From a virus (Duplodnaviria > Caudoviricetes), in IMG/VR virus record IMGVR_UViG_3300035498_000356, positions 64,001 through 128,000 of that record: 64,000 nucleotides of DNA. One strand, given 5' to 3'. The translations under genes were made by a program, and so were the position numbers. The first letter of the stretch is position 1. Each line of letters opens with the position of its first letter. Shown here in pieces: positions 3,460 through 23,374 of this stretch. The notes beneath the pieces are model-generated. The model ran no database searches, was not told the DNA's origin, and saw only the letters and a list, made by a program, of their open reading frames with translations.

Positions 3460-5090
3460 TTACTGAAGCTCTTATTGAAGCAATTAAGCGAGGTCGTGAA
3501 GGAAAGTCTCAAGGTTATAGTATTGGACTTCCTAAACTTGAACAAGTCATTGATGGAGTATGTAAGGGAACTTACGTTTTACTCGGAGCAGAATCCGGGG
3601 TAGGTTGCAATTTTTAACACAGCCGTTCCAATTGAGGAATCATTGGAATTATTATTGGGCAATATCGGTGAAAGTCTTAATAAAGATAACACCGAGATAA
3701 ATTCAGAAATTAAAGAATCTGAATCATCGTACAGCATAGATATTGAACCTCTTAATTGAGAATATAATATATCCAAGAGTGTCCAACATCCCAACTGAAA
3801 TAAGTGGATGAAAATATATGCGGGACTTATTAGTGATAATAAGAAACTAGAATAAAAAATCTAGTGATAACATACTCGAAAAGCTCATTTATGCTCTATT
3901 CAATGATTTATAGACCTATTATGGATCATCTAGATGATGGAAAATTCAAAATAAGCCTATTTAGTCTTGAAATGAATGCGGATATGATTTTAGCTAAATT
4001 ATTATCTACATATATTTTTGAGACTTACAATGTTAGATTAAGCATTAAACAACTTTTATCAGTGCAAAGAGGATTTATTTTGAATGATGATTGTTATCAA
4101 ATAGTAGAAAAATGTATTCCATGGATGAGAAAAGTGGAATCTATTATAACTATTTATGATAAGAATGCTTCTGCTAATTCAATTTATTCTCATCTTCTTA
4201 AAGAATTAGAAGCTAGAGGACATTTTGAAGAATCTGATAAAAGAAAAATATATATTCCTGATGATCCAGACATTATACACATCGTAGTGGTCGATCATCT
4301 CGCCAGAATTTATGCGTCTGAGGGAAGAACACTCAAACAAGAGATGGATTTAACCTCTAAATATCTCTATTCATTAAAGAATCGTTGTGGTATATCACCA
4401 ATTGTTATACAACAATTAAATAGAGGTATTCAAGGCATGGATCGACGACGTGAGGGAATGTTAACTCCTACAACAGCAGATTTTAAAGATACCAATTCGT
4501 CAAAATAGGCGAATTTAAAACTCCGTTAAACGGGGAAAATCCTAACTTGGACAATCCCGTGCTAAACCTTCAAGAAATTGAAGAAAATGCCTAACGACTA
4601 GAAGTGAAGCTAAACAGGTAATGCTGTAGCTATAAATTCTTCCACGAAAGCGGGGCACTGTTTCTATTAATAGAAATTAAAGATATAGTCTGAACTATAT
4701 AGAAATATATAGAAGTTATAGATAAAGAGCTATGACGTTAACAAAATTGCAATAGAAGACGCAGAGATAGTTCTAGCTTTATTTAGCCCTAATCGTTTAA
4801 AATTAAATAGTCATAGAGGCTATGATATTAAACAAATGGGCGATAAGTTTAGAAGTGTCATTGTTCTTAAATCAAGGTATGGAGAATCTGATGTTGAGGA
4901 TTTTATTTATTATGATGGAAAATGTAATGTTTGGAAGGAGCTTCCTAGAGCTTCTGAAATAATAGATTATGGTAAATTTGATAATCCACGATGGTGGATA
5001 GATAATGTCAAAGGTATTGAATTTATAGATTCTGAAGTCAAAGATGATCAATCTAAAGATAGTGAAACTAACTTTAAATTCGTTCTATAA
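3456..5090 (+). CDS. dnaB: DnaB-like replicative helicase, join(3456..3605,3879..4500,4750..5090), 370 aa
   Basis: Splicing restores Walker A GAESGVG|KSS and DFKDTNS|SIEDAEIV (aligns with DnaB DLRDSGSIEQDAD); VVVDH Walker B, IQQLNR, KSRYG; spliced length is a multiple of 3. Confidence 0.92.
3606..3878 (+). mobile_element. ORF-less group I intron 1 (273 nt) in the DnaB Walker A motif
   Basis: 5' exon ends in U, intron ends in G; P1 ggt|tg pairs with cagcc giving a U.G pair; P7 gcata/tatgc; removal restores GVGKSS. Confidence 0.88.
4501..4749 (+). mobile_element. ORF-less group I intron 2 (249 nt) in DnaB
   Basis: P1 aattcgt| pairs with gcgaatt (U.G at the splice site); R element aacgactag; S element agatatagtct; P9 ctatata-gaaa-tatatag; terminal G4749. 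Confidence 0.92.
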
Positions 5091-6119
5091 TGGCAGCAGA
5101 AACTATATTAATTTTAGGTGAATCTGGAACTGGTAAAAGTTCATCTTTACGCAATCTTGATCCCACTACAACATTTATTATATCAACTACTTCTAAACCT
5201 CTTCCTTGGAGAGGATGGAAGAAGCATTATAGTAAATGGGACTTAAAAACAAACCCACAAGGCAATTGGTATCAAACATCCAATTCACAAAATATTGGAA
5301 CTATTATGAAATATGTAAGTGCTAAAAGACCAGAAATAAAAACACTTATATTTGAAGATGCTCAGTACTCAATGTCATTTGCTTTCATGGATAGACGTTC
5401 TGAAAAGTCTTATGATAAGTTTAATGATATTGGTGGAGACTTCACTGACCTACTTAGAATATCAGAATCGCTTCGTGATGATCTAAAAGTAGTATTCATC
5501 AGTCATAGTGATAATATTGGTGACAATATGAACCCACACTGGAGTTTAAAAACGATTGGTAAATTTTTTTGCCTGTTAATCCCTAATTCGGTAAGAGTTA
5601 AATATAAAAAATACGCTCTCTAAGAAAGCCTAAGGTCCAAATTTATATGGTTTGGATAGCTGGTAATACCGAGCCAAGCTGGAATTTGTAATTCCTGGCG
5701 TGTGTAACGACTATCTCCGTATCGGGAGAGTAAAATTAATTTGATAAATTAGTTTGAAATGGGATTTATTAACCTGTAGATTTTTATTTTCAAGAATAAA
5801 AAATCAGGTTAATTAAGATATAGTCTAAACTATATAGAAATATATAGAATATAATGGTATTAGATTTTATCACTAATATGTAAACATTATATTATAATTG
5901 AAAATGGTCAACGAAAAGATAACACCAGAAGGTTTGTTCACCTATGTATTTTATGCTATGGTTGTCGATGGTGATAATGATTATGAATATAAATTCTTAA
6001 CCAACACTGATAGAGAACATGTAGCAAAAACACCTATGGGAATGTTTGAAGATAAATTAATTGATAATGATTTAGCAGAGATTATTAAAGTAATTGATGC
6101 TTATAATGAAGGAGAATGA
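5090..6119 (+). CDS. Sak4-like / AAA_24 P-loop ATPase (recombination, single-strand annealing), join(5090..5560,5901..6119), 229 aa
   Basis: GESGTGKS Walker A, IFED Walker B, ISHS; splicing restores KTIG|KMVNEKITPEGLF. Confidence 0.85.
5561..5900 (+). mobile_element. ORF-less group I intron 3 (340 nt) in the Sak4-like ATPase
   Basis: P1 ggt|...gcc with U.G; P taattcggtaa / Q aataccgagc; R gtaacgactat; S aagatatagtct; terminal G5900. Confidence 0.92.
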
Positions 6120-6652
6120 GTAAATTAACATTTCAATTTTCTTTTGACACAGAAACAGGAGAATTTTCTGTAGTCAATACTGATACTGGAGAAGTAAAAA
6201 CAGCTAAAGTATCTAAGAAAGTAGAAGTTTCTGACAATGAAACTCCTACTTTAACTTTGGAAGACACCAAGTGTGTTCTTAATGGTTCTGCAATTCATCT
6301 ATTGAATGTAGAACCTGGTGATAAACTAGATATTAAATATCGTAAAAAAGATTCTATTATTCCTGTAATAGCTACTGATGATACATTTGGAACTCACTCA
6401 GGCAATAAGCTTTGTAAGAATAATAGTTTTGCATATCGTGGAAGTAAGCATGATGAACTTGCTAAGTATGGTACTGTATTTACTCTAGTTAAAGATTCAG
6501 AAGGAGTATTTATTCTGCAAGGAGATAAAACTCCAGAACCTTTAGTTGAAGATACTCCAGTAGAAACGGATAATCTTGATTCTGAATTAGAAAATCTTCT
6601 TAATTCAGATTCGGATGTAACAGAAATTTCAGATTTTCAATTTACTCTTTAA
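6116..6652 (+). CDS. Hypothetical protein with acidic C-terminus (replication module)
   Basis: 178-aa ORF coupled to the ATPase by ATGA. Confidence 0.7.
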   Translation: MSKLTFQFSFDTETGEFSVVNTDTGEVKTAKVSKKVEVSDNETPTLTLEDTKCVLNGSAIHLLNVEPGDKLDIKYRKKDSIIPVIATDDTFGTHSGNKLCKNNSFAYRGSKHDELAKYGTVFTLVKDSEGVFILQGDKTPEPLVEDTPVETDNLDSELENLLNSDSDVTEISDFQFTL

Positions 6653-6667
6653 ATAATTTTATAAATT

Positions 6668-7441
6668 ATGGCTTTTAATTTTGGAAATATTACAAACGCT
6701 ACAGTAACAAATTCAACTTCTTATTTAAAACCTTATCAGATTTATTCTGATGTTGAAATTAAGAAAACAGAAATAGTAGAAGGCGAAAAAGATGGAAGAC
6801 ATTGGAAGCGTCTTGATATTGTTTTTGGCAATAATGAAGGAGAATATACTGAAAGTATGTTCTATTGTGACGAGAATAATCCTCGAGATATTACTCGCCC
6901 TGAATATGACCAACCTAATGGAGGTAAACGTTATGGTGCAGCTCCTATTGAGGAATTGCAAAATGAGATTGCATCCATTGGTTTTGCATTCTTTCCTAAA
7001 CAATTTGAAAAACTTCAAGCAGCAGCAAGCAAGATTGGTACTGTTGAGCAGCTGATGGCTTTGTTTAAGAAATGTATTGACGGTAATATTGGTAAAGTGA
7101 AAACCAATATGAAACTTGTAGGTCGTAAAAGTTCTGATGGACATGTATATGCACGTCTACCTAAATTTACTGGTATGGCCGAAGCTAAGACACAAGAATC
7201 CGCATCTCGTAATGGAGTAGAAGTTGGACAATGGTATTCTTGGAGAGTATCTCCATTTAATGATAATCCCGATCGACTTACATTCAGCAGTTATGAAATG
7301 CAACAAGCTAATTCTCTAGCTTCTGCAAAGCCAACTCAAATGAGTCCATTGGATTCACTTGATTCAGTTGAATCAGTACCTGCTTCAACTGTTAAACCAA
7401 GTGAAGATGAGGATTTGTCGGACCTTTTGGCTGCACTCTAA
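6668..7441 (+). CDS. Putative single-stranded DNA-binding protein
   Basis: Lies between the Sak4-like ATPase and primase; OB-fold-like N-terminus; flexible acidic tail EDEDLSDLLAAL. Confidence 0.6.
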   Translation: MAFNFGNITNATVTNSTSYLKPYQIYSDVEIKKTEIVEGEKDGRHWKRLDIVFGNNEGEYTESMFYCDENNPRDITRPEYDQPNGGKRYGAAPIEELQNEIASIGFAFFPKQFEKLQAAASKIGTVEQLMALFKKCIDGNIGKVKTNMKLVGRKSSDGHVYARLPKFTGMAEAKTQESASRNGVEVGQWYSWRVSPFNDNPDRLTFSSYEMQQANSLASAKPTQMSPLDSLDSVESVPASTVKPSEDEDLSDLLAAL

Positions 7442-7445
7442 TAAA

Positions 7446-7477
7446 TTTGTAAATTCAAACTAAAATTGCTTTATTTG
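7446..7477 (+). promoter_or_regulatory. Possible Bacteroidota sigma-type promoter upstream of primase
   Basis: TTTG at 7446, 20-nt spacer, TTTATTTG (1 mismatch to TAnnTTTG). Confidence 0.4.
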
Positions 7478-7496
7478 CAATAAAAAGATTTATTGC

Positions 7497-8516
7497 ATGA
7501 ATTTTAGTTTATATGATAAACCTAGATTAACTAAGGATTTCATATTATCTAAATTAACCGAAGAGCAAATATTTAGTTATTATATAGGAGGAAATATATT
7601 TAATAAGAAATTATTTAGAAGTCAATTACGAAAAGATAAGAACCCAACATGTTCTTTCTATCGTAATAAATCTAATACTCTTATATATAAAGATTTCGCA
7701 ACCGGACAATCTCTAAACTGCTTTGGGTATGTTTGTGAATTGTTCGGTTGTGATTACTTTAAAGCGTTACAGATAATTGCTAATGACTTTAATTTAGTTA
7801 AGAATGATTCATTAGTTAAAACTAGAGGTAAAATTATTTCAAAAGATTATAAGATAGAAGAAAAGGAATTTTCTAAGATACAGGTTGAAATTCAAGACTT
7901 TACTGATTACGATATAAAATGGTGGGGTAAATATGGAATTACTACAGATATACTTAAAAAATATCATGTGTTTTCTTGTAAACATGTATTTTTAAATGAT
8001 AGATTAGTTTCTGAATATGGACAACATTGTCCTATCTATGGATATTATGGAAATAAATATCAAGGTAAGGAACTATGGAGAATATATTATCCCAAACGTA
8101 AATCGTATCGTTTTTTAACTAATTGGCCCACTAAGAAAATTCAAGGATATGATCAATTACCAAAGAAAGGTAAATTATTGGTAATTACAAAGTCAATGAA
8201 AGATCTAATGGTTTTGAATTCATTAGGTATATCAGCTATTGCTCCAAACTCAGAAACACAAATTCCAGGTGAAGCAATATTAGATGATTTAAAGAAACGA
8301 TTTAAAAATATAGTAGTCCTATTTGATAATGATTTAACTGGAATTAGTTTTATGAATAAATTCAAAAAGCAACACCCAGAATTTATATATACATGGATTC
8401 CTAGAAAACTAAATGCTAAAGATATTAGTGATTACTATAAATGCAACGGTAAAGAAAAAACAATCAATCTAATTAAACAATTTATTTTATGGCTAAAAAA
8501 AGTTAGAAAGACTTAG
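7497..8516 (+). CDS. DNA primase (crAss-type, TOPRIM)
   Basis: LRKDKNPTCSF...KDFATG N-terminal domain; ITKSMKD, PNSE, LFDND, KDISD TOPRIM motifs. Confidence 0.9.
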   Translation: MNFSLYDKPRLTKDFILSKLTEEQIFSYYIGGNIFNKKLFRSQLRKDKNPTCSFYRNKSNTLIYKDFATGQSLNCFGYVCELFGCDYFKALQIIANDFNLVKNDSLVKTRGKIISKDYKIEEKEFSKIQVEIQDFTDYDIKWWGKYGITTDILKKYHVFSCKHVFLNDRLVSEYGQHCPIYGYYGNKYQGKELWRIYYPKRKSYRFLTNWPTKKIQGYDQLPKKGKLLVITKSMKDLMVLNSLGISAIAPNSETQIPGEAILDDLKKRFKNIVVLFDNDLTGISFMNKFKKQHPEFIYTWIPRKLNAKDISDYYKCNGKEKTINLIKQFILWLKKVRKT

Positions 8517-9061
8517 ACACATCAGTAATTATAACGTATAAAGACGGAAGTTTTGAACAATTCAATTCAATAAGTGAAGCATCAGAGAAAACAGGATTAT
8601 CTGAATCTGCTATTAAAATACGTTGTAATAAATGTAGAGAAGGCTCTATGAACAAAAAAGATAAAATTCACTGCAAGTGGATAGATGATACTACTTTTAG
8701 AAGCTATCAAGCTAAGAAAAGTAGGAATAAAGGAAATAAATTTGAATTAGATGTTATTAAAGAATTAACTGAATTAGGATATAAAGGACTTGTGTCATCA
8801 AGATCTCAAAATCGTAATTTAGATAATTCTAAAGTTGATATAGCCGAAACTACAGATAAACTTCCATTTTATATCCAATGCAAGGCAACTTTGAATACTC
8901 CAAATATTGAAACTATTAGTGAAGAATGCCCTTTGAAGGATAAACCACTTGTTATATTTTGGAGAAAACAAAAAGTTAATTCCGAGTCTTCTGATTATGT
9001 GATATTGCCAAAAGAAGTCTTATATAATCTATTAAAAAATGAAAAGACTAACAACTAGTGA
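8489..9061 (+). CDS. Holliday-junction resolvase (PD-(D/E)xK) with an N-terminal HTH; internal TAG at codon 6; ends TAG-TGA
   Basis: MAKKS*KDLDTS...FNSISEASEKTGLSESAIKIRCNK is in frame with ORF 8648; RNKGNKFELDV, KVDI, IQCK resolvase motifs. Confidence 0.8.
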
Positions 9062-10077
9062 ATTTGTAAAATAGTCTCGTGAAACCCATGGTAATAAATA
9101 TGATTATTCTAAAACAGAATACTACACCAAAAGAGATAAGGTATGTATAATCTGTCATAAACTTGATACTGAAGGTAAAGAGCATGGAGAATTTTGGTAG
9201 ACTCCTGATGCTCATACGAGAGGTTAGGGATGTCCAAAATGCAAGTTTTAGAAATTAAGCAAAGATAGAGTTAAAGATATAAATAATTTTATAAAAGATG
9301 CTAATTTAGTTCATAATAATAAATATGATTATAGCAAATTTAGTTATATTAATGCCCGAACTAAAGGTATTATAATTTGTCCAAAACATGGATAGTTTTT
9401 ACAAGATCCAGCTAATCATTTATCTGGAAAAGGATGTTCTGAATGTGGAAAAATAACTATATCAAAGAAACAACTAATGCCACAAGAAGAATTTATTTCT
9501 AGATGTAAAACTTTAAATCCAGATTATAATTATTCTAATACAATATATACTGGAATTGAGAATAAAATTACATATATTTGTCCAATACATGGAGAAATTG
9601 CTTAGAATGCACATGACCATTTGTATAATCATGCTAGATGTCCTAAATGCAATTAGTCTAAAGGTGAATTTTTAGTAGAAAATGTTTTAAATAGCTTAAA
9701 TATTAAATATATTTCATAGTATAAAATTCAAATCCCAAAAAATATTCGTACATCTGGATATTGTTATATAGATTTTTATTTACCAGACTATAATATATTT
9801 ATAGAGTATAATGGGGGTGTAGCATTATATTCCAGTTAAACATTTTGGAGGAAAATTAAAATTAAAGGATTAGCAAATTCGGGATAACTATGTTAGAAAA
9901 TTTTGTAAAAATAATGAAATTAAATTATTAGAAATACCTTATAATATAACTGATTTGAAAGATATTGAATTTTTAATTCAGTAGAGTATAGAAAATGATC
10001 AAAACCACTAGTTAGCTATAATTCCTGTCGATTTATTTTATAAACTTTTAGAAAATTATCATAAGAATCATGACTAA
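9039..10077 (+). CDS. Free-standing homing endonuclease: three Zn-binding repeats plus a Vsr/DUF559-like nuclease; 12 in-frame TAG read as Gln; one extra G at 9813-9817
   Basis: Repeats such as KYDYSK...IIC..HGEFW*TP..H..G*GCPKC; CN*SKGE; DFYLPDYNIFIEYNG(V*)HY...RDNYVRKFC...LLEIPY; absent from the ORF track. Confidence 0.85.
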
Positions 10078-10279
10078 ATTTATATTTGGAGTTCAAGATA
10101 ATAGTATAGATGAGAGAACATTATACTCAATTGAAGCATGTACTATTGAAGAAGCAAGAAATAAATTCTGTAAATTATGTATGCCTATTATTAAAATGAA
10201 GTATGATGATATGCTTGATATGCTAGCAGATATAGATGTTATTATAACCGAATACAATAATAATATTATTGAACTCTAA
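10070..10279 (+). CDS. Hypothetical protein
   Basis: ORF track; coupled operon. Confidence 0.65.
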   Translation: MTKFIFGVQDNSIDERTLYSIEACTIEEARNKFCKLCMPIIKMKYDDMLDMLADIDVIITEYNNNIIEL

Positions 10280-10497
10280 TGAATAAGTATGTAATTCCTA
10301 TTTGTGATACTAAAGACGACCTTATCTACAATCTAGTTATTTCTGCGAATTCAATATCAGATTGCGAAGCAAAGCTCATGGAAAAAATGAGTGAAAGATA
10401 TGATATTGATCCAGAGTTTGACTTTAATGAATTTATTGATGATATGGGCGAATATGATGTTCTTATAGGAGAAATACAAGATATAGAAGAACTATGA
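10279..10497 (+). CDS. Hypothetical acidic protein
   Basis: ORF track; TAATG coupling. Confidence 0.65.
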   Translation: MNKYVIPICDTKDDLIYNLVISANSISDCEAKLMEKMSERYDIDPEFDFNEFIDDMGEYDVLIGEIQDIEEL

Positions 10498-11015
10498 ACT
10501 TAAAGATTTCTTTAGATTTAGATGGAACAATATTTGATTGGGATAATTATTACCAATCAAAATTTGGAATACCTAAATCAGATTTTGAAATAACAAAAAA
10601 TGTAATGGGAATATTAAGAAAGGATAAACAGTATTGGTTAGAACAACCTATTCTTAATATTCCTAACTTTATACCTAATTGTTATTGTACTTCTAGGGTT
10701 ATTCCTAAACGTTGGATTACTGATCAAATTAAAGTTAATGATTTACCTAAAGCTCCAGTGTATCAAGTATTTGGTTTTGGACTTAGTAAATATTCTCAAC
10801 TTAAAAGGTCACAATCTTCCGTTCATGTGGATGATTCTATTTCTGTATTTAAAGATTTAAATTTGAAAGGAATTCCATGTTTATTATTAGATTCTCCTAA
10901 TAATAAAGATTGGGGTCCAATAGGTAGAATTCATTCTTTAAATATAGATGAGATTGAAGAGGTATATGATTTATTTATTAGAACTATGTTTCCTTGTTTT
11001 AAAGAGTTGATATGA
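10494..11015 (+). CDS. HAD-superfamily phosphatase / 5'-nucleotidase-like protein
   Basis: SLDLDGT motif I, CTSR motif II, HVDDS motif IV. Confidence 0.8.
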   Translation: MNLKISLDLDGTIFDWDNYYQSKFGIPKSDFEITKNVMGILRKDKQYWLEQPILNIPNFIPNCYCTSRVIPKRWITDQIKVNDLPKAPVYQVFGFGLSKYSQLKRSQSSVHVDDSISVFKDLNLKGIPCLLLDSPNNKDWGPIGRIHSLNIDEIEEVYDLFIRTMFPCFKELI

Positions 11016-12055
11016 AAATAACACCACTATTAGAAACTCTTAGATTACAGAAAATAGACGATAGTACATATTTCTCTAAGAAGTACAGTAATTATATTAG
11101 TAATTCTAGATTGAGTTTAATCAATCCTAAACAAGATGGAAGTCCTGAAAAATTTTTTGAAGGATTTAAACCATTCTATTCTCCAAGTTTGCAAATTGGT
11201 TCAGCAGTACATGCTATTGTATTGCAACCTGAATCATTTCATATAGCAGATGATTTAGGAAAACCAACTAGCAAAATGGGAATAATGGCTGATGAATTAT
11301 ATTCTGATTATATAAATGGAACTTTAGATAATGAGAAGATAAGAGAAATATCTTTAAAGGTTGATTATTATTCAAATGCTCTATGGGGAGAAGCAAAATT
11401 CAAAAAAGTCATTGATGATTGCACTCCTTATTGGGAGGCTCGAAAGCACTATTCTGAGGCAATTTCAGACAATAGTGTTGAAGAATTATATCTTGATTAT
11501 CGAAGTCGTCAAATTGCTATCAGCTGTATAGAATCACTGCAAAACAGTAATTATATATTAGATAAGATGCATCCAAAAACTGAATTTCCGGATTCAATTA
11601 TATCTGAAAATGAGCAAGCTATTTTGTTAGATATAAAAGTTGAAATGGAAAATTCAGAACCATTTATACTTAAACTTAAAGCTAAACTAGATAATTATGT
11701 TATTGACACATTGAATAATACAATATGTGTTAATGATATAAAGACTTTAGGTAAAACTGTAGATAAGATGAATGAAAATATAGATAGATTCCATTATAAT
11801 AGGGAATTTGCATTCTATTTATATTTATTAAATCTTGTAGCTCATAAGTATTACGGCTTAAAAAATCCAATAGCTAAAGGAAATTATTTAGTAGTATCTA
11901 CTATTCCTGGATATTATACAAAAGTAGTTCCTTTAACTAAAAAGATGCTTCAAGAAGGATTTGATGAACTTAAATATTTAATACATTTAGTTGCAGAGAA
12001 TGTTGCAACTAAATATAAAGACTTTGGTATATGGAATACAGCTATCAGCAATTAG
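11012..12055 (+). CDS. PD-(D/E)xK exonuclease (RecE/DUF3799-like)
   Basis: ISNSRL, GSAVH, LKAKLD, NDIKT, HYNREFAFY motifs. Confidence 0.8.
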   Translation: MKITPLLETLRLQKIDDSTYFSKKYSNYISNSRLSLINPKQDGSPEKFFEGFKPFYSPSLQIGSAVHAIVLQPESFHIADDLGKPTSKMGIMADELYSDYINGTLDNEKIREISLKVDYYSNALWGEAKFKKVIDDCTPYWEARKHYSEAISDNSVEELYLDYRSRQIAISCIESLQNSNYILDKMHPKTEFPDSIISENEQAILLDIKVEMENSEPFILKLKAKLDNYVIDTLNNTICVNDIKTLGKTVDKMNENIDRFHYNREFAFYLYLLNLVAHKYYGLKNPIAKGNYLVVSTIPGYYTKVVPLTKKMLQEGFDELKYLIHLVAENVATKYKDFGIWNTAISN

Positions 12056-12360
12056 AAGATTTGTATTCTAAATATTTTAGCTTTGGTAATTTAGGAATTA
12101 GCTTTGATTCTAAGTTAGCATTACTTTCAATGCTATGCCATCTTACTGAAGAACTAAAAGGAAAGAAACCTGATATTAACCATTATCAAGTTTTAAGAAA
12201 TATTGTAGGAACTAAAATTCCGGATAATGTTGTTAAAGGCATTTCTATAGTAGCTAAAGATATGAGCTATGGATGTCAACAATTTCCAACTTTTGGACTT
12301 ACAAATAAACAAATGATAGATAAAATAAAAGAATTAGCAGATAATTATTTACCATTTTAG
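12031..12360 (+). CDS. Conserved crAss-like hypothetical protein
   Basis: ORF track. Confidence 0.7.
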   Translation: MEYSYQQLEDLYSKYFSFGNLGISFDSKLALLSMLCHLTEELKGKKPDINHYQVLRNIVGTKIPDNVVKGISIVAKDMSYGCQQFPTFGLTNKQMIDKIKELADNYLPF

Positions 12361-12476
12361 ATTTAACACTTTTTAACAGTAAATTATTTTATTATATAAT
12401 ATAAAATGACTAAATTTGCTAGAAAGGTTAGAAACCAAAGATGTTTAAAATTTTTATAGATTTTTTTGGTAAAGCA

Positions 12477-12508
12477 TTTGGATAGTAAAAAATAAAATAC
12501 TATATTTG
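12477..12508 (+). promoter_or_regulatory. Bacteroidota housekeeping-type promoter (-33 TTTG, -7 TATATTTG)
   Basis: Perfect consensus with a 20-nt spacer; a second TAAATTTG lies at 12411. Confidence 0.75.
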
Positions 12509-12559
12509 CTTTATAAATGTAAAATGAATTAATGTTAAATTTTAAATTTTATTTGTCTT

Positions 12560-13213
12560 ATGGAAAATAATTATGTATTCCGTTCAATCGAAGTAGTAGG
12601 CGCAACAAAAGAAGATGCATTTGCAAGTCAGGACACATTCACAGCTCCTGTAGAAAATTGGCGTAACGCAACACAGGCATTCCGTAATTGGAAACAGTCA
12701 CAGACTGAAGCTATTACAGATGCTGCTGTAAAGGAGTTTATGCGTGAATATATTCGTGCTAACAAGATTGCTCCTGGTGCTGCTGCTTATATTGTAAATG
12801 AGCCTGCTGTTAAGGATACTCGTAAGCGTGCTTACACTATTGAGGATGTTAAACGTGAAGGTGGTGCTACTCACTATGGTAAAGTATTTGAACTTTGTGA
12901 GAAGCTTGAAGATGGAACAATTCGTGTACTTGCTTCTACACCTTGCGAAATGGTACCGCAAACTGATGATGAAGGTAATCGTTTGCTTGATGAAGATGGT
13001 AATGTTCGTATGAAGGTTTCTTCTGCAACTAAGGCTGAAGCTAAGAATCTTGCTAAAGCGCTTATTACTGAAAAGGGTTATAAGGGTTCAGGTTTTGCTC
13101 GTCTAGTTCGTAAAGTTGCAACTGGTGATGATGTTGTATTTACATTCTCTTATACGCCTTCCAAGAGTGCACAGAACGGAGTTTATACTGTGTTTGGTTT
13201 GGAAATTTGTTAA
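12560..13213 (+). CDS. Conserved hypothetical protein, probably highly expressed
   Basis: Codon bias (cgt, aag, gct, ggt); flanked by its own promoter and terminator. Confidence 0.8.
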   Translation: MENNYVFRSIEVVGATKEDAFASQDTFTAPVENWRNATQAFRNWKQSQTEAITDAAVKEFMREYIRANKIAPGAAAYIVNEPAVKDTRKRAYTIEDVKREGGATHYGKVFELCEKLEDGTIRVLASTPCEMVPQTDDEGNRLLDEDGNVRMKVSSATKAEAKNLAKALITEKGYKGSGFARLVRKVATGDDVVFTFSYTPSKSAQNGVYTVFGLEIC

Positions 13214-13259
13214 GAATTTATTTTTCGATATTAATGATAAATTAAGTTTGAATGATTTT

Positions 13260-13296
13260 GAAGGAGTTGGTCTGTGAAGATCGACTCCTTTTCTTA
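13260..13296 (+). terminator. Rho-independent terminator
   Basis: gaaggagttggtc-tgtgaa-gatcgactccttt followed by a U-rich tract. Confidence 0.8.
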
Positions 13297-13350
13297 TTTT
13301 ATACCCAGAAATGGTTTTAACAATTGAATAAAACAATTAAAAATATTTGA

Positions 13351-14865
13351 ATGAAGGAAAGTACATTAAAACAATTGCAAGATGATTTGCAATATATTCT
13401 TGATAACAATCTTACAATTTCAGAGTGGCAAGATAAGTTTAATAAAGGTAAACTTAATATCTCATCTAGAATGGTTTCTTATAGATCTGATATTAAGAAT
13501 GTAAATAATTATCCAGAAATATATAACCTCTATATGGCTATTAAAGAAAGAGATAATAAGCCTAAGAATATAGAACAAGATGATACGTCTTGGTCTGTTG
13601 ATAGAGATGAAAATGGAGTTATACAAAAATATCACATTTATTATCCTACAAAAAGTGGGATTCCATTTATTACGGCATTAACTAGACAAGATGCAGAAAC
13701 TCTATTTAGTTTATATACATATTATGGAGGTAATGTAACAGCACGTAATGTTTGTAATGAATTTCCACAATATACTCTTGCTGAGATTAAGATGATATTT
13801 AGATGTTTTAATCTTACTAAAGATTCTATATTTGTAGCTCCTCACTTATTAGAAGAACTAACTCCTGAACAGATTGCTCAATATAGAATGCAAGTTAAAG
13901 AAAGAGCTGCATTTAAATATTGTGATGCTAAACAAGAAAGAGATTTCACTAATCAGATTAAAAAGATGGCTAGTGAAATTAATAAGCTTAAAGACTCTAA
14001 AGATCTTGCTGAATCTCTTATTGGTAAAGTTGAATATGAAAAAGTATCAATAAAGAAAGAAGTTCCAGAAAAAGGAACTACTGGAGTTATATGTCTTTCT
14101 GATTTACATGTAGGAGCATTTAATGTTCCCGAAGGATATATAGATCTACCTGAATATAATGAATCAGAAGTTAATAGAAGACTTGATTATATAATTAATC
14201 AACTTTCCTATAAAGGTTGGGAAAATGTAATTGTATTAAATCTCGGAGATTCTATTGATTCATTTAGAAAAATGACTACGTCAATGTCTCATCAATTGCC
14301 CTGCGTAAAGACAGATAGAGAGATTGCCGAAATGTATCTTTCTGTAATGAAGCGATTCTTTTATCAACTTAAACAAATAGTTCCTAATGTTCAATATAAT
14401 TCAATAGGTTCTGGTAATCATAGTGGTGATACTGGATGGCTATGTGATATGGTATTAGTTAGAGATTTAACTAATGAACTTGGAATAAAATGTTATTTAA
14501 GTAATAAAGAAATAGATGCATTCAATTATAGAGGAACATCTTATATTTATTTACATGGAAAAGCACAAGCAACTAAAGGTCAATATAAAGGATTTCCATT
14601 AAACCTGAATGATAGAACTCAATGTTGGTTTAATGATTTCTTTGCAGATACTGACTTAGAATTATTAGATAAAAAGGTAGTTATTAAAGGTGATTTACAT
14701 CAATTCTCAGTTAATAGTGTATCTTCATTTGACTATATAAATTGCCCTTCCGTTTATGGAAGTAGTACATATATAGTAAGCAATTTTGGATATACTAAAT
14801 GGGGATGTGCTTATCTTGAAATAGATACTCTTGGAAATTATAATATAGGTGTTATTAAAGAATAA
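13351..14865 (+). CDS. Calcineurin-like metallophosphoesterase/nuclease with an N-terminal extension
   Basis: LSDLHVG, LGDSID, GNH, LHG, GDLH motifs. Confidence 0.85.
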   Translation: MKESTLKQLQDDLQYILDNNLTISEWQDKFNKGKLNISSRMVSYRSDIKNVNNYPEIYNLYMAIKERDNKPKNIEQDDTSWSVDRDENGVIQKYHIYYPTKSGIPFITALTRQDAETLFSLYTYYGGNVTARNVCNEFPQYTLAEIKMIFRCFNLTKDSIFVAPHLLEELTPEQIAQYRMQVKERAAFKYCDAKQERDFTNQIKKMASEINKLKDSKDLAESLIGKVEYEKVSIKKEVPEKGTTGVICLSDLHVGAFNVPEGYIDLPEYNESEVNRRLDYIINQLSYKGWENVIVLNLGDSIDSFRKMTTSMSHQLPCVKTDREIAEMYLSVMKRFFYQLKQIVPNVQYNSIGSGNHSGDTGWLCDMVLVRDLTNELGIKCYLSNKEIDAFNYRGTSYIYLHGKAQATKGQYKGFPLNLNDRTQCWFNDFFADTDLELLDKKVVIKGDLHQFSVNSVSSFDYINCPSVYGSSTYIVSNFGYTKWGCAYLEIDTLGNYNIGVIKE

Positions 14866-14872
14866 ATTAAAA

Positions 14873-15046
14873 ATGGAAAAGACCGCTAGAAACAAAAATT
14901 ATTGGTTTGAAAATTACAAACCGAGTAAAACATCAGTTCCTGTAACATATAATGGAATTGAATATCTTTCAAAGAAACAATGTTGTGTATTAGAGCATAT
15001 TAGTATGAATCAACTCAATAAATATCTTGAAAACAATGGAAAATAA
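14873..15046 (+). CDS. Small putative DNA-binding protein
   Basis: ATG at 14873; VTYNGIEYLSKKQCC..EHIS resembles NUMOD/HTH modules. Confidence 0.5.
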   Translation: MEKTARNKNYWFENYKPSKTSVPVTYNGIEYLSKKQCCVLEHISMNQLNKYLENNGK

Positions 15047-15389
15047 ATCTTTAGTTACTGCTAATGATATACTCAATTTAGTTGATACTATAATTTCAAA
15101 TGTAGATAAATATGATATTGGATTTAGTTCTAGTGAGCATGATGATGAACTTAAATTCAATCATCTAAGTATATATATTTCAGATAAAGAATATATTTGT
15201 ATTCAATATGATGGTGAAAAAATTAGATTAAATAATAGAAATATTGATATTTTTATTAGACAATTATCAGAAATAGAAAAATGTACATTATCTTTAAAGT
15301 TTGAAATTCTTAATGATATTCTTAAACAAAGATTATCAGATAGGATTCATGAACTTATTACAATTCCAAATGACGATATAGATGAATAA
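15027..15389 (+). CDS. Hypothetical protein
   Basis: ORF track. Confidence 0.65.
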   Translation: MKTMENKSLVTANDILNLVDTIISNVDKYDIGFSSSEHDDELKFNHLSIYISDKEYICIQYDGEKIRLNNRNIDIFIRQLSEIEKCTLSLKFEILNDILKQRLSDRIHELITIPNDDIDE

Positions 15390-15720
15390 GATATTCGTTC
15401 TTAAAAAAGTTGTATCGTATCCATTAGATGTTGGTGAAATTATTGCTGCATATACATCTATGGAATCTGCAATGCAGGCTAAATCCAAATTAGAAGAATC
15501 ATTTCCAATTATAAACGAAGAAGACTTTGTAAAAATTGATAATGATGTATTTGATTTTTGTCAAGAACAAGATATAGATAGCAATGATAAAGCTAATTGG
15601 ATAGATGTTGCTAAAACTGTATGTGATTTCAGTGAGAATGATTTAATAAAAGCTTATGACTTTTATACTACTACTGAATATGGAACATACGATATAATTG
15701 AAACTGATTTATGGAATTAA
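15382..15720 (+). CDS. Hypothetical protein
   Basis: ORF track. Confidence 0.65.
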   Translation: MNKIFVLKKVVSYPLDVGEIIAAYTSMESAMQAKSKLEESFPIINEEDFVKIDNDVFDFCQEQDIDSNDKANWIDVAKTVCDFSENDLIKAYDFYTTTEYGTYDIIETDLWN

Positions 15721-16511
15721 CTATTGATGAATTGTTAAGAGGTAAAGGAACTCAAATTAAAGGTAAAGAGTATCTTCCTACAGCTGCTTATGTAGAACCT
15801 TTTCTAGAACGTTTGTCACCTTATACAAATGATTTTAGAGTACAGGTTAAATTACCAGATCAAATTACACTTACAGAAAATGGAGGTGTAAATATGGAAG
15901 ATATTACATTTAATAGAGTTTGGGTACAAGCTATTATGCCTGATGAACTCAATTATGAAAATCATAGAGATAGTGTAAGTCTATTATATGCTCTTGATAC
16001 ACGTAAGCCTGTAGTTAAGATATTTAAATCTGGAGTAAATATGGCATGTTTAAATATGTGTATATTTAATCCAAGTTATATTAATCTACAATCGCTTGAA
16101 CCAGAAGCTCCTATTAATTTTAAGTGCGTGAAACCACTTATGGAAGAAGTATCTGATACTGCAATGTGGATGCATAAACTTGAAGAAACAGAAGTTCCAT
16201 ATAATTATGAATTAATTAATGAGAACTTAGGTATGTGGATTCGTAATAGCATTAAGAATACTTATGATTCTGGATACGGTAAAGTAAAATTAGCAACATC
16301 TACACCTATTGATGCTTATAAACTTTTATACGAGAAGAAAGATTCTCCTTATTATGTAGAAGAAGGAGCATCTACTAATATGTTTAATGTTTATAATGCA
16401 TTTACTGAATTAGTAACAAACGATGGTACTAAAGAAGATAAACGTGGTGGAGATTTATGTTGTAAAGCTGAAAAGACTTTGATGATTAAAGATATTCTAC
16501 AATTGGTTTAA
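15711..16511 (+). CDS. DUF932-like phage protein
   Basis: ACLNMC and FNVYNAFTE motifs typical of the DUF932 family. Confidence 0.6.
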   Translation: MELTIDELLRGKGTQIKGKEYLPTAAYVEPFLERLSPYTNDFRVQVKLPDQITLTENGGVNMEDITFNRVWVQAIMPDELNYENHRDSVSLLYALDTRKPVVKIFKSGVNMACLNMCIFNPSYINLQSLEPEAPINFKCVKPLMEEVSDTAMWMHKLEETEVPYNYELINENLGMWIRNSIKNTYDSGYGKVKLATSTPIDAYKLLYEKKDSPYYVEEGASTNMFNVYNAFTELVTNDGTKEDKRGGDLCCKAEKTLMIKDILQLV

Positions 16512-16527
16512 TTAAAATTATAATTTG

Positions 16528-19500
16528 ATGACTGAACAAGAATGGCTAGGCGATAATCAACTCTCATTAGATATTTGGAATAACAAATATAGATATAATA
16601 ATGAATCATTTGAAGATTGGCTAGACAGAGTAAGTGGAGGTGATAAAGAAGTTAAACAGTTAATTATTGATAAGAAGTTCTTATTTGGAGGTCGTACACT
16701 AGCTAATAGAGGTATTGAAGGAGCAGGTAGTTATTCTAATTGTTATTCAATTGGATTTGTTCCTGATTCATTGGAAGGTATAATGGATGTAGCTACTAAA
16801 ATAGCACTTACATTTAAAGCACAAGGAGGTCAAGGACTTTCCTTATCTAAAATACGTCCTAAAGGTTCTCTTATTAGAGGGCAATATGAATCAGATGGAA
16901 TTGTTCCATTTATGCATATTTTTAATACAGTTACTGAAAGTATTTCTCAAGGAGGTTCTAGAAAAGGTGCGTTATTAATGTCTCTTGATGCTACACATCC
17001 AGAAGCTCTTACTTTTATTAAAATTAAAGAAAATCCTAATGAGATTACTAAAGCTAATCTTTCCGTTGAGTGTTCGGATCATTTTATGAATAACATTTAT
17101 AGCAATGAAAAATACGCAGAAGTATTTAATGCTATATGTGAATCCGCTAGAAAAAGTGCAGAGCCAGGAATAATCTTTACAGATAGATTTCGTAATTATA
17201 ATCTTATGGAATTTGTAGATGATTATCAGATAGAGACTTGTAACCCCTGCGGAGAACAGCCGCTGCCTAAAAATGCTGCTTGTAATTTATCTTCTATTAA
17301 TCTTTCTGCATATGTAATTAATCCATATTCTGAAAGAGCATGTTTAAATGAGGATCAATTAGTAAATGATGTTTATACTATCGTAAAAGCTATGGATGAT
17401 GTACTAGAAGAAAATATAGAACGTCATGCTCTTAAAGAGCAACAAGACATGACTAAGAAATATCGTAATCTAGGAATAGGAATTATGGGATTGGCTGACT
17501 GTCTTGTTATGTTAGGAATTAAATATGGATCTAAACAAGCTTGTTATGTAGCATCTGATATAATACAAATTATATTTAGATCTGCTGTATATGCAAGTAG
17601 TGATTTGGCAGAAAAAAGAGGAAATTTTCCTGGGTATTCTGAAAAAATATGGGATTCTGAAATTATACAGCATAGTTTTACTGATGATGAAATCCTTAAA
17701 CTAAAAGAAAAGAATAAATTACGTAATTGTAGTCTTATTTCTATTGCTCCAACTGGGTCAAACTAATAGGCTCAGTATAAATTCCGTTAATTGCTGGAAC
17801 TTCCTTAAATTAGATAAACTACAACATAATCCGAAAGGATAAGTGTGAATGTTTGAAAATTATCTAAATTTTGATTTTTCTAAAAATATATGTATATTTA
17901 CTCATGATTTTTAGATATGAGCCTTAGGCTCAATATAATCGAAGATGGAAAATCAGCAACCATGTATCTAAATATTTTATATATGATATAGGGCTCAACG
18001 ACTAAATTTTGTACACTGTAAGCTGATGACAGTGGAAACACGGAAATTATTTTATATATGAGTAAAGTTAATATTACTAAAGAAGAATTAGAAGATTTGT
18101 ATATCAATTAGGAGTTATCAACTCGTGATATTGCAAAAAAATTAAATGTAGGGCAAACTACTGTAAGAAGATGGTTATCTAAATACGAAATTAAAACAAG
18201 AACGTCTAAAGAATCTAAAAATACATCTGTGTATCAAAAGAAAGTAGAACAACTTGCAGAAAGGTATAGAATTGAATATGTTAAAGACTATACTAAATTT
18301 TGTGAATGTTGTGGAAAAGAATTTCATGTTGATGGTAGACATAAAAACCAAAAGTATTGTTCTCCTGAGTGTGTTAGAAATTCAAAAGTTACCAGAGAAT
18401 CTAAAATATTAGAAACTGGAGAAAGAATTTATAAAAATACTTATACATGTGAATTATGTAATAAAGAATATACCTTTTGGAATCCTCGGTATTATAAAAG
18501 GCGTTTCTGCGATAATTGTTTATCACAACATAAATCAGACATATTTACTAATAAAATTACTACTACTTGCGGCTATTGTGGAAAAGATATAGAAGTAATT
18601 CTTAGTAGATTTTATAGTAATAAATATTGTTATTGTAATGTTAAATGTATGGCTGAACATTATGCTTAGATTTATACTGGTGAAAACTCTCCAACCTGGA
18701 AAGGAGGAGTAAATAAACATTACAAAGGAAATTGGTTACATCAATCAAAACTTTGTAGAGAACGTGATAATAATTGTTGTCAAATTTGCGGAAAAAGTTA
18801 TGAAGAAAATGATAATCATAACATGGATGTTCATCATATTAGAAAATATAGATTATTTGAAAATCCTGATGAAGCAAATAATTTAGATAATTTGATTTCT
18901 TTATGCCACTCTTGCCATAGTTTTATTCATTCTAATAGTAATATAGACAAATTGTATATTAAAGAATAATAAGATATAGTCTGATCTTATAGGAAACTAT
19001 AAGCTGTGGATAATTCCCGTATATGATGTTGCGAATCATATAGAACAAAATGCTATAGGAACCATGTTGAATATATCAACTGGTTGTGAACCTTTCTTTG
19101 CATTAAGCTATATTAGAAAGACCGTTTCTTTGAATAAAGAGGATACTTTTTATACGGTTGATATAAAAGCAGTAGAGGATTATAAAAGAATTACGGGAAA
19201 TGTTAAACTTCCTTCATATTTTGTAACTTCTGAAGAAATTCCGTATGAATCCAGAATTAATATGCAGGCAGCTTTGCAGGAATTTACTGATACAGCTATT
19301 TCAAGTACAGTAAATCTTTCTAGTGATACTACTGTTGATCAAATTAAAGATTTGTATATCAAAGCATGGAAAGCAGGATTAAAAGGGGTTACTATTTATG
19401 TTACAGGTAGTAGGGATCCAATTCTTAGTACAGATTCTAAGAAAGAATCTGAAGAAAAACCTGAAGTAGAAATATCTCAAGAATTTAGTCTTAATACTGA

Positions 19501-20056
19501 TAACGCTAAATCACAGTTAGATAACCCTCATGAACTTGAAAGAGGAGAAATTATCAAAGCTGGTAATGAATGTATTGGTCTTAAGCGGACTTTGATTACT
19601 GGTTGCGGCAGTTTACATTGTACGGCCTACTTTGACCCTTTTAATGGTGAATTACGGGAATGCTACCTTTCTAAAGGTAGTACAGGAGGTTGTAATAACT
19701 TTATGATTTCTCTTTCTCGTATGATTAGTCTTGCTGCCAGAGGTGGAATAAAGGTAGAAGATATTTTAGATCAACTTAAATCTTGTGGTGTTTGTCCATC
19801 ATATGCTGTTCGATCAGCAACCAAACGTGATACTTCTAAAGGTTCATGTTGTCCAGTCGCTGTTGGAGAAGCATTGAAAGAAATGTCAGAAGAAATGAAA
19901 ACATTAGTGAATACTAATCAAACTTCAACAATCGAAATAAAACAAAATGATGATAAATCAGAAGGAGCTGAATGTCCTAATTGTCATGAAATGACTTTAG
20001 TACATGTAGGTGGGTGTACTTCATGCACATCCTGCGGTTTTTCTCATTGTAGCTGA
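16528..20056 (+). CDS. nrdJ: Class II (B12-dependent) ribonucleotide reductase, join(16528..17758,19053..20056), 744 aa, with C-terminal TSCPD-like and Zn-ribbon domains
   Basis: FGGR, SNCY, SQGGSRKGA, TCNPCGEQPL, ACNLSSINL; splicing restores APTGS-IGTML..STGCEP; AISSTVN, KGVTIY; no nrdB nearby. Confidence 0.9.
17870..17900 (+). promoter_or_regulatory. Possible intron-internal promoter for the HNH ORF
   Basis: TTTG, 19-nt spacer, TATATTTA (1 mismatch to TAnnTTTG). Confidence 0.4.
18058..18969 (+). CDS. Intron-encoded HNH homing endonuclease, 303 aa, with two in-frame TAG (18109, 18667)
   Basis: HTH STRDIAKKLNVGQTTVRRWL; CxxC...YCSxxC zinc fingers; NSPTWKGG; CQICG...DVHHI...NLISLCHSCH; single frame from ATG to TAA if TAG is sense. 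Confidence 0.88.
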
Positions 20057-20060
20057 TATT

Positions 20061-20255
20061 ATGATTGTATTTAAAATACTATTACTGTTAATTAGTTTAT
20101 TTAAAATCTTTATTCTATCATCTAGTAAACTAATTGATGAATTATATGAAGTTTTAAAAGAATATCTTTCTTACGAACAACTTTTAGGAATTCAATCATT
20201 AGTAATTATGGATGGTGTAATAGAGTTAATTTGTGTACTATGGATGTTTATATAG
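20061..20255 (+). CDS. Small membrane protein
   Basis: Two hydrophobic segments; ATG at 20061 just after the nrdJ stop. Confidence 0.5.
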   Translation: MIVFKILLLLISLFKIFILSSSKLIDELYEVLKEYLSYEQLLGIQSLVIMDGVIELICVLWMFI

Positions 20256-20509
20256 TATATAATAATGACGACCTAATAAGAAAGTTGGGAGGTGCTTATA
20301 CATTGAAAGTATCTCCCTACTTTCATTTTATTAACGACCTAACAAAGAAAGGCAAGAAAGAAGCTTGGAAACTTAAACAAGAATTTGGAGCTAAGTTAAC
20401 TCCATTTGCAGTTGTCTATGAATCAGAAAAGCCAATTAAAGCCTTTTATTCAGAAACAGGAGAAGATATTATATCATCTCTTATTAAATACTTAAATGAT
20501 GGAAACTAA
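20240..20509 (+). CDS. Thioredoxin-fold-like protein lacking CxxC
   Basis: FGAKLTPFAVVY resembles the thioredoxin cis-Pro strand; adjacent to nrdJ. Confidence 0.45.
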   Translation: MDVYIVYNNDDLIRKLGGAYTLKVSPYFHFINDLTKKGKKEAWKLKQEFGAKLTPFAVVYESEKPIKAFYSETGEDIISSLIKYLNDGN

Positions 20510-22624: not shown

Positions 22625-22987
22625 ATGGGACTTGATATATTTTTTGATAAAAGAAGTAAACTTAATATAGGATATTTTAGGAAGGTTAATTTCTTGGTAT
22701 CATTCTTTGAAAATTTAGGATACAATTTAGATAATTGCGTTCCTATTAAAATTAAAAAAGAAGATATTGTAGAATTAATTAGTTTATGTTCACAAGTATT
22801 GAAGAATCATGATAAAGCAGAAGAATTGCTTCCAACGCATTCTGGATTCTTTTTTGGAAGTACTGAATATGATGATATGTATTTTGAAGATGTGTTTGAA
22901 GTATATAAATATTGTCAATTTGAATTACTTCCAGAATTCGATAAACTTAATAATACAGAATATATAACATTTACAATTGATTTTTAG
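22625..22987 (+). CDS. Conserved phage protein (MGLD...YFRKVN...GFFFGSTEYD type); TAG stop in frame with the next gene
   Basis: Recognisable phage family motifs. Confidence 0.75.
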   Translation: MGLDIFFDKRSKLNIGYFRKVNFLVSFFENLGYNLDNCVPIKIKKEDIVELISLCSQVLKNHDKAEELLPTHSGFFFGSTEYDDMYFEDVFEVYKYCQFELLPEFDKLNNTEYITFTIDF

Positions 22988-22990
22988 AAT

Positions 22991-23374
22991 ATGAAATTAG
23001 AACCACTTTTGCCACTTATTAAAAAGTATCAACGAGCTGCAAAGTCTGACGATTATACCGAAACTGATAGAATTGGAGAAGAATTAGAAGATGCTCTTTG
23101 TGAAGATCATAGAAGATTAAATTGTGAAATTACATTAAAATTCTCTACTGATTTGAGTGAATTAAATAGTCAAGATTGTAATTTTCTATCATATTTAACA
23201 GAGGATGATGTAATTGACCCATTGCAATCAGCGTCAACATATATTAATGAAAATATTGAATATTGTTATAATAATTCATATTTAGATAACAATGGAAGAA
23301 GTATCATTGTAAAAATAACTGATTCAACAGGTAAAGTAATATACCAAAATAAAATGAATGGTGTTAATTGGTAA
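22991..23374 (+). CDS. Hypothetical protein
   Basis: ORF track. Confidence 0.65.
   Translation: MKLEPLLPLIKKYQRAAKSDDYTETDRIGEELEDALCEDHRRLNCEITLKFSTDLSELNSQDCNFLSYLTEDDVIDPLQSASTYINENIEYCYNNSYLDNNGRSIIVKITDSTGKVIYQNKMNGVNW

Follow-up and report, generated by a model that had tools for sequence, protein, structure and literature searches.

Why should genes in the replication block of a phage carry stop codons inside their reading frames, and does it matter that the ones first noticed all encode enzymes that cut DNA? The question is raised by a window of 64,000 nucleotides (genome bases 64001–128000) of IMG/VR record IMGVR_UViG_3300035498_000356, the 155,354-bp genome of a crAss-like phage in which TAG is read as Gln in the late genes. 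Three genes of the plus-strand early block in this window contain internal amber (TAG) codons: a junction nuclease with similarity to the Holliday-junction resolvase Hjc, a free-standing homing endonuclease (HEG) and an HNH HEG lying within an intron of nrdJ. The first-pass annotation proposed that the ambers form a timer which keeps these nucleases, and nucleases selectively, untranslated until the genetic code switches. The sequence comparisons described here support such a timer well for the junction nuclease and leave it plausible for the two HEGs, for which relaxed constraint predicts the same pattern; a lock selective for nucleases did not survive. Taken as a whole, the explanation that a conserved amber gate makes the nuclease dependent upon the phage suppressor, with the HEGs written in the late code, appears to have a somewhat better than even chance of being correct.

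A conserved amber codon at the start of the junction nuclease gene

The junction nuclease gene starts within the end of the primase gene, and its frame meets a TAG almost immediately.

8489–9061, plus strand: Hjc-like PD-(D/E)XK junction nuclease, 190 aa, with TAG at codon 6; the gene ends TAG-TGA
8504–8506, plus strand: the amber gate, a TAG in frame with the ATG and five codons behind it; a stop there would give the peptide MAKKS
7497–8516, plus strand: DNA primase (phrog_12622, E 6e-51), TAG-free inside, with its TAG stop at 8514–8516; overlaps the start of the junction nuclease gene

Orthologs were collected by a profile search of metagenome contigs, which gave 80 loci encoding proteins 41–60% identical to the window protein and comprising 73 distinct DNA sequences. 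A single TAG is present at codon 4–9 in 65 of these 73 and the codons preceding it vary. The TAG is homologous in this genome, in the relative L007/G001 (codon 4; protein 54% identical) and in the relative L017/G002 (codon 6), the three genomes aligning on the pattern MAK(KS)-TAG-K-x-L-[DN]-T-S. The sole downstream in-frame ATG in the window gene (M54) is not conserved, being replaced by Ala in G001 and by Thr in G002, and the conserved N-terminal domain of the protein starts directly after the gate TAG. The bodies of the ortholog genes show Gln codon usage of the early type, their 279 Gln codons being made up of 228 CAA, 46 CAG (16.5%) and 5 TAG.

The arrangement is almost confined to this gene. 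Early loci totalling 676 kb were scanned for an ATG followed within 10 codons by a stop and then by at least 100 open codons. The TAG version of the pattern, without a nearby ATG, was found 69 times in the junction nuclease gene and about four times elsewhere. The control patterns with TAA or TGA nearly always had an ATG no more than five codons from the stop and are thus ordinary starts. In a maximum-likelihood tree of the nuclease the gate is found in every major clade and its absence needs four to five changes. The code status of relatives was read from the number of TAG codons in the portal gene of their IMG/VR records: the gated relatives G009–G011 have 16–22 TAG in this gene and the gate-less G008 has no TAG and one TGA.

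A or G follows the gate TAG (position 8507 in the window; orthologs L118–L197) in 56 of 57 genes, with the next amino acid varying (K, R, E, V, N, T, D, S). A purine follows 62% of the late-gene sense TAG codons of this phage. The bias behind the gate may reflect selection on suppression context.

Identity of the junction nuclease

The AlphaFold (AF2) model of the protein had a pLDDT of 85.6. The top Foldseek matches were the archaeal Hjc 1gef (prob 0.99, E 6e-3) and, for the N-terminal domain, I-HmuI 1u3e; a profile search of PDB sequences found Hjc 2eo0 and 1hh1 with E 5e-3 to 7e-3. The N-terminal domain is I-HmuI/NUMOD-like by Pfam/PHROGs and Foldseek, and is predicted to bind DNA. Residues E86, D117, Q130 and K132 are invariant across the orthologs. 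The model and profile matches are weak but consistent, and point to an Hjc-like fold. Holliday-junction resolvase is therefore a reasonable but unproven name, and the protein would presumably cut junctions.

Recoding of TAG and the suppressor tRNA

The genome has a GC content of 30%, and its 127-bp terminal overlap shows it to be either circular or terminally repeated. Under the standard code (code 11) the minus-strand half of the window is broken up. Reading TAG as Gln opens ORFs of 1630, 358, 3583 and 3215 aa, with 9–61 TAG per opened late ORF (61 in the 3583-aa ORF, and 28–61 in the three long ones of 1630, 3583 and 3215 aa). Recoding of this kind is found genome-wide in all structural genes and in one plus-strand lysis block. 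TAG makes up 41% of the Gln codons in 18 late genes as against 0% in 70 early ORFs, and CAG makes up 4% as against 20%. Fifteen of the 70 early ORFs use TAG as their terminal stop. The assignment to Gln is supported by the free-standing HEG, since its TAG columns, that of the catalytic NGxQH motif included, sit on conserved Gln of standard-code homologs; at columns 54, 189, 227 and 262 Gln is found in 31–56 of about 59 such homologs.

A tRNA able to read TAG is encoded by the phage itself.

Genome c[34579–34650], minus strand: suppressor tRNA with anticodon CTA (CUA), found by ARAGORN; Rfam tRNA 57 bits

The tRNA(CUA) lies in a short, minus-strand, standard-code unit (genome c[34276–35872]; L001:10276–11872) between the lysis block and the early block, in the company of an HTH_36/DnaD_N-like protein and two small ORFs. 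A ribozyme was looked for beside the suppressor tRNA and none was found. The early block also contains a sigma-factor ORF (window 27241–28089; PHROG 'RNA polymerase sigma factor', phrog_351, E 6e-61), which is a candidate participant in the early-to-late switch.

A near-identity DNA search with the region found no match among GenBank phages. Matches at the protein level were at most 54% identical, the primase finding crAss-like phages at no more than this value. By backbone genes the nearest relative is L007/G001, a TAG-recoded phage of 163 kb in which the primase is 73% identical.

The free-standing homing endonuclease and its mobile tract

The gene immediately downstream of the junction nuclease encodes a HEG containing many TAG codons.

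9039–9839, plus strand: HEG part A, which holds three Cys/His repeats together with the first portion of a Vsr/PD-(D/E)XK-like nuclease (phrog_559 121–356, E 2e-48)
9072, 9198, 9225, 9249, 9393, 9603, 9654 and 9717, plus strand: the eight TAG codons of part A, by reading of the frame
9811–10077, plus strand: HEG part B, the C-terminal part of the nuclease, in the +1 frame (phrog_9084 110–171; phrog_559 356–445)
9820, 9871, 9982 and 10009, plus strand: the four TAG codons of part B, by reading of the frame
9813–9817, plus strand: G5 run with a one-base insertion (+1 frameshift) that splits the HEG just before its NGxQH motif
8690–10040, plus strand: mobile tract common to the relatives G002, G003 and G004, comprising the 3' two thirds of the junction nuclease gene and the whole HEG

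The first-pass count of 12 TAG codons was right as the sum of eight and four, but the gene is not one open frame, being divided by the +1 frameshift. The phrog_559 coordinates of the two parts are contiguous, and the HEG of L017 is in frame at this point (AAT GGG ATT TAG CAT; 341 aa, 11 TAG). The copy in the window is either freshly broken or mis-assembled. A programmed +1 frameshift is unlikely because the relatives' copies are in frame.

TAG is absent from this phrog_559-type family at about 70 standard-code phage loci, and the members in recoded phages have 8–13 TAG. They are TAG-rich in recoded phages both in the late block (L040) and in the early block (L038, this genome and G002). TAG accounts for 12 of the 19 Gln codons in the window HEG, marginally over the late average (p = 0.04); across four lineages the TAG share of these HEGs is 55–67%, compared with the late-gene average of 41%.

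The HEG appears to have moved between phages together with part of its neighbour. Nucleotide identity to L017/G002 is 0.78–0.87 inside 8690–10040 and 0.35–0.69 in the flanks, and protein identity to the same relative is 79–82% in the tract as against 30–55% for backbone genes. No HEG is present at this site in the nearest backbone relative, L007/G001, and the tree places the junction nuclease of this genome apart from that of G001. The identity tract, the absence of the HEG from G001 and the grouping in the tree together indicate homing with co-conversion of the neighbouring gene. HEGs of the phrog_559 family also lie within 0–2 kb of the gated nuclease, either upstream or downstream, at loci L121, L130, L181, L195 and L196. 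These positions suggest a hot spot for the family at the primase/nuclease junction.

The nrdJ intron endonuclease and other introns

The third gene with internal TAG lies between the two exons of nrdJ.

16525–17766, plus strand: nrdJ (ribonucleotide reductase, RNR) exon 1, TAG-free (PF02867 positions 170–391, E 4e-72)
18058–18969, plus strand: HNH HEG within the probable group I intron of nrdJ, 303 aa, with TAG at 18109 (codon 18) and 18667 (codon 204)
18906–19003, plus strand: 3' core of the probable group I intron (AAGAUAUAGUC ... P9-like hairpin), a match to RF00028 (24.9 bits, E 8e-4) that falls short of the gathering score (50)
19064–20056, plus strand: nrdJ exon 2, TAG-free (PF02867 positions 396–523 and TSCPD)

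The exons are contiguous, the RNR profile stopping at 391 and restarting at 396. The HNH domain occupies residues 241–291, behind the second TAG (PF01844, 24.6–28.9 bits against a cut-off of 21.4), and phrog_8446 spans residues 8–288 across both TAGs with E 6e-28. The weak RF00028 match is to the 3' core only, which overlaps the end of the HNH ORF; an ORF placed in a loop is the probable reason why the rest of the intron escapes the model. A pattern-based search among viral contigs found no relatives of this HEG.

In the relative G001 (L107; G001:100001–120000) nrdJ, at 9439–13796 on the minus strand, is interrupted twice, at sites different from that in the window: one insertion carries an HNH gene of 185 aa without TAG, the other a GIY-YIG gene of 291 aa containing a single TAG. 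As the gene is split elsewhere and by other endonucleases in G001, RNR is a recurrent landing site. Two group I introns without ORFs interrupt the DnaB-like helicase gene of the window, at 4489–4712 (RF00028 66 bits) and 5644–5847 (32 bits, below threshold), and the ortholog in L007 is a single uninterrupted 362-aa gene.

Amber codons in the rest of the early block

The plus-strand early block extends over about 36.3–100.9 kb of the genome, with positions 1–36884 of the window as its share there, and is devoted to replication and nucleotide metabolism. Besides the primase and nrdJ it encodes a SNF2-like helicase, the DnaB-like helicase, a Sak4-like annealing protein, two exonuclease-like proteins, dUTPase, ligase, polynucleotide kinase, DNA polymerase and ThyX. 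About 58 code-11 ORFs of the block in the window are TAG-free inside and at least seven of them end at TAG, in good agreement with the estimate of about 60 clean genes, several of them TAG-stopped, from which the annotation had started. Exactly three genes there require read-through of internal TAG. Pfam and PHROG confirm all three as nucleases, and the TAG numbers first reported for them (1, 12 and 2) were correct. The association, three of six nuclease genes against none of about 50 others, has a Fisher p of 7e-4 in what is a post hoc test.

Nuclease genes free of internal TAG were also present, as had been noted for the GIY-YIG endonuclease of the polymerase gene and for an exonuclease; this holds for both exonuclease-like genes.

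30039–30995, plus strand: GIY-YIG HEG between two DNA-polymerase pieces (PF01541, E 1e-9), with TAG for none of its six Gln codons
11012–12055, plus strand: exonuclease VIII-like gene (phrog_412, E 3e-11), TAG-free inside and with TAG as its stop
13351–14865, plus strand: exonuclease-like gene (phrog_284, E 2e-17), TAG-free

The claim that nucleases are the only amber-containing genes of the early block stands for the window and falls for the block as a whole. A 638-aa gene with 16 TAG lies in the same plus-strand block 5.8 kb upstream of the window (genome 56312–58228; L002:12312–14228). TAG forms 59% of its Gln codons and its neighbours are TAG-free early genes. Its product has a hydrophobic Ala/Gly-rich N-terminal segment and an HExxH motif and has no match in Pfam or PHROG. 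The counterpart in G001 (654 aa, 15 TAG) shares with it only the N-terminal hydrophobic segment and the HExxH motif. Two more ORFs of the plus block, at genome 36890–37702 and 39882–40709, are candidates for internal TAG.

The prediction that early genes with internal TAG in related genomes should be enriched for nucleases was borne out in part. Sixteen ORFs in the relatives' early loci had two or more apparent interior TAG codons, of which eight were genuine, and six of these eight encode HEGs. Five belong to the phrog_559 family, often adjoining the junction nuclease gene, and one is GIY-YIG/HNH-like. Among the 707 TAG-free ORFs of the same loci there were four HEG-like partial matches only. 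The TAG-containing genes of the early block are thus strongly enriched for HEGs, but about half of the HEGs are without TAG and non-nucleases are included among the TAG genes. The early block of G001 has, besides one GIY-YIG HEG whose domain contains a TAG, three TAG-free HEGs: an HNH protein of 326 aa, the 185-aa HNH protein from nrdJ and a 251-aa GIY-like protein. Apparent interior TAG in exonuclease VIII-like and radical-SAM-like ORFs of relatives proved to lie in terminal extensions.

Other TAG-containing ORFs of the window were rejected as terminal extensions or out-of-frame ORFs. Apparent internal TAG in PolB and in genome 60561–61283 lies, by comparison with orthologs, in extensions past the true start or stop. 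The ORFs at 22625–22987 and 22991–23374 are two genes, of 120 and 127 aa, in the same frame with only TAG plus one codon between them, phrog_7971 covering the first alone; read-through of the TAG after the code switch would yield a 249-aa fusion. Read-through of the TAG stops of the early block would add 0–33 codons in 12 genes and 99–128 codons in three.

The earlier proposal also requires that the nucleases are co-transcribed with the replication genes, and overlap between the ORFs, together with the absence of any terminator-like site ahead of 13260, suggests that they would be. The only convincing intrinsic-terminator-like site on the plus strand of 6500–20500 is a hairpin with a 14-bp stem and a T-rich tail at 13260–13291, which would close a unit that begins with the primase, includes the endonuclease and extends to the gene at 12560–13213. 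Matches to sigma-70-type promoters were fewer than in shuffled sequence and so carry no information here.

Selected gate, drift, dose or artefact

The TAG-containing genes combine two different phenomena. For the HEGs and the HExxH gene, an account to which we give a little less than even weight is that constraint has simply been relaxed. Purifying selection would keep TAG out of early genes, as these have to be translated ahead of suppressor activity, and genes not needed early would drift from CAG to TAG or CAA in an AT-rich genome, any delay being without benefit; selfish HEGs of long residence become TAG-rich and new arrivals are TAG-free. Since CAG has almost vanished from the late genes (4%) and TAG is common there (41%), such drift could bring TAG into any gene that is not needed early. 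The mixed condition of the HEGs, with 12, 2 and 0 TAG in this genome and 1, 0, 0 and 0 in G001, fits this account, as do the TAG-free state of the phrog_559 family in standard-code phages and its TAG-richness in either block of recoded phages, a TAG share in the window HEG barely over that of the late genes, and the decay already begun by its frameshift. The consistent excess of the HEG TAG share over the late average in four lineages weighs the other way. Phage HEGs such as those of T4 introns and the seg/mob genes are actively delayed by other means, which also weighs against mere relaxation. The HEG ambers may be a selected lock or the product of drift in genes never needed early. For the junction nuclease the account fails, because drift cannot produce a conserved amber at the start together with a body that shuns TAG, and selected dependence upon the suppressor is the simplest reading.

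The gate of the junction nuclease could instead act as a dose limiter or sensor of suppressor activity rather than a clock, the yield being proportional to suppression so that a toxic nuclease is kept low or ramped; we regard this as unlikely but worth keeping in view. It would account for the scarcity of interior TAG (5 of 279) in a gene that needs suppression anyway, as more ambers would cut the yield too far, and for the purine bias behind the gate, which suggests that suppression context is under selection. Late proteins with up to 61 TAG must, however, need near-complete suppression, at which a single TAG would limit little. It is very improbable that the whole pattern is an artefact, with translation of the nuclease beginning behind the TAG and with endonuclease genes that are dead and have acquired their stops by decay. 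In favour of this, the free-standing HEG does carry a frameshift, and code 11 would allow a product of 136 aa, comprising the nuclease part only, from the ATG at codon 54. Against this, the order of ATG, 2–8 codons and TAG is conserved, M54 is not, and G001 has no usable ATG; moreover TAG is the only in-frame stop in these genes, TAA and TGA being absent, its positions coincide with conserved Gln columns and the PHROG alignments continue across them.

Several observations weigh against the preferred reading of a selected gate on the nuclease with HEGs that are locked alongside it. The relatives G006 and G007, with the similar orthologs L127 and L136, are TAG-recoded and have no gate, so the gate must be dispensable; set beside the gated G009–G011 and the unrecoded G008, they show that the gate follows recoding yet can be lost. 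A simple on/off timer leaves the avoidance of interior TAG unexplained, as tolerance like that of late genes would be expected. The tRNA(CUA), lying in a standard-code unit by the early block, may itself be made early and the delay may then be short. The similarity to Hjc is weak (E ∼5e-3) and the invariant Q130 occupies the position at which the ExK motif normally has Glu. The HEG with the most ambers is frameshifted in this genome. Finally, the supposed selectivity for nucleases is broken in both directions: the early block holds the HExxH gene, with 15–16 TAG in the two genomes, so that the lock is not confined to nucleases, and TAG-free HEGs exist, namely the GIY-YIG of the window and three in G001.

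A proposed mechanism

The preferred reading can be set out as follows. The early plus-strand genes would be served by the standard code of the host, and TAG would become Gln once the phage tRNA(CUA) is active. The junction nuclease would be a standard-coded body with one selected amber just behind its start codon, so that a five-residue peptide is released without suppression and the full nuclease is made with it. Cutting of branched DNA would in this way be coupled to the code switch, presumably sparing replication and recombination intermediates until packaging. The position of the gate may also be economical, as an abortive round would cost five residues and leave no truncated DNA-binding fragment. 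By analogy with T4 gene 49, a reason for delaying a branch-cutting enzyme can be suggested. What the sequences show is the recoding, the suppressor tRNA gene and the positions and conservation of the TAG codons, with TAG = Gln by homology; the timing, the co-transcription, the cutting of junctions and the adaptive value are inferred from these. The HEGs would be mobile genes in the late code, like the HExxH gene, and translatable only after the switch.

The avoidance of TAG in the interior of the nuclease gene suggests that the protein is made during partial suppression or that the amber sets its dose. One could tentatively extend the scheme, as a possibility that we think doubtful, to a graded safety catch based on the code, in which the number and position of ambers set the onset of expression and hazardous genes embedded in operons are scheduled without promoters of their own. 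A single amber at the start would then make nuclease output proportional to suppressor activity, as in a 'middle' gene sensing the code switch, and genes with many ambers, such as the HEGs and that of the HExxH protein, would appear only at near-complete suppression.

The interest of the gate lies in its simplicity. Recoding as a regulator has so far rested upon codon bias at the level of gene blocks, and a single conserved amber offers the cleanest natural test case, with the prediction that no junction nuclease protein is present before the suppressor tRNA acts. If it holds, a dangerous DNA-cutting enzyme would be timed purely by translation, and synthetic biology would obtain a one-codon switch ready for use. 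There is a consequence for annotation as well: gene calling with the standard code shortens or omits such genes without warning where they lie in the 'standard-code' arm of a recoded phage. The HEG part adds little that is new; it shows the dominance of HEGs among early TAG genes and the transfer of part of a gated gene between phages.

Comparison with known systems

A role for code-15 recoding (TAG = Gln) in the translational timing of late and lysis genes has been put forward (Borges et al., bioRxiv 10.1101/2021.08.26.457843; Yutin et al., PMC7886860), stop-codon recoding in gut phages has been validated by metaproteomics (PMC9523058), and a recoded intron endonuclease in an early gene of the TGA-recoded Agate phages was expected to be delayed until late infection (Borges et al., bioRxiv 10.1101/2021.08.26.457843). 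Block-wise recoding, the timer hypothesis and the expected delay of an intron endonuclease are therefore already published. The present phage resembles the published recoded gut phages in its standard-code replication block, its recoded structural and lysis block and its own suppressor tRNA. Compared with the Agate case, the codon is TAG and the phage is crAss-like (Zeta-type). It differs from published recoding in that a core, non-mobile nuclease carries one conserved N-terminal amber rather than biased codon usage; 'resolvase' is not mentioned in the stop-codon recoding literature found by our search. Also added here are the HEG census, the TAG-free HEGs and HExxH gene as counter-examples, the frameshift in the HEG, the HEG-driven transfer and the avoidance of interior TAG.

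The archaeal Hjc/Hje enzymes (1gef, 1ob8, 2wcw) are the best structural and profile matches to the junction nuclease through a PD-(D/E)XK core at residues ∼72–141, in which E86, D117 and K132 are invariant in the phage protein. The phage nuclease differs from them in the weakness of the similarity (E ∼5e-3, TM 0.46 on target), in the replacement of Glu by Q130 and in its extra N-terminal I-HmuI/NUMOD-like domain.

T4 delays endonuclease VII (gene 49) and its intron and free-standing HEGs by late promoters and by occlusion of the ribosome-binding site in early transcripts. The likeness to gene 49 and the T4 HEGs would be that of genes co-transcribed with early genes and untranslated until late, in a manner that protects replicating DNA, the nuclease acting at packaging. 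The difference is that control in the present phage would lie in an amber codon and a phage suppressor tRNA, not in RNA structure or a promoter. HEGs of the seg/mob type in T4-like phages co-convert flanking genes, and phage RNR genes are broken by HEG-bearing introns. The present HEG similarly varies in presence among close relatives and is accompanied by its flanking gene in a high-identity tract, and an HNH ORF lies in what is probably a group I intron of the RNR gene. It differs from the HEGs of T4-like phages in being of the phrog_559/9084 type, with Cys/His repeats and a Vsr-like domain, in being written with 11–13 sense TAG codons in recoded phages and in the frameshift of the present copy.

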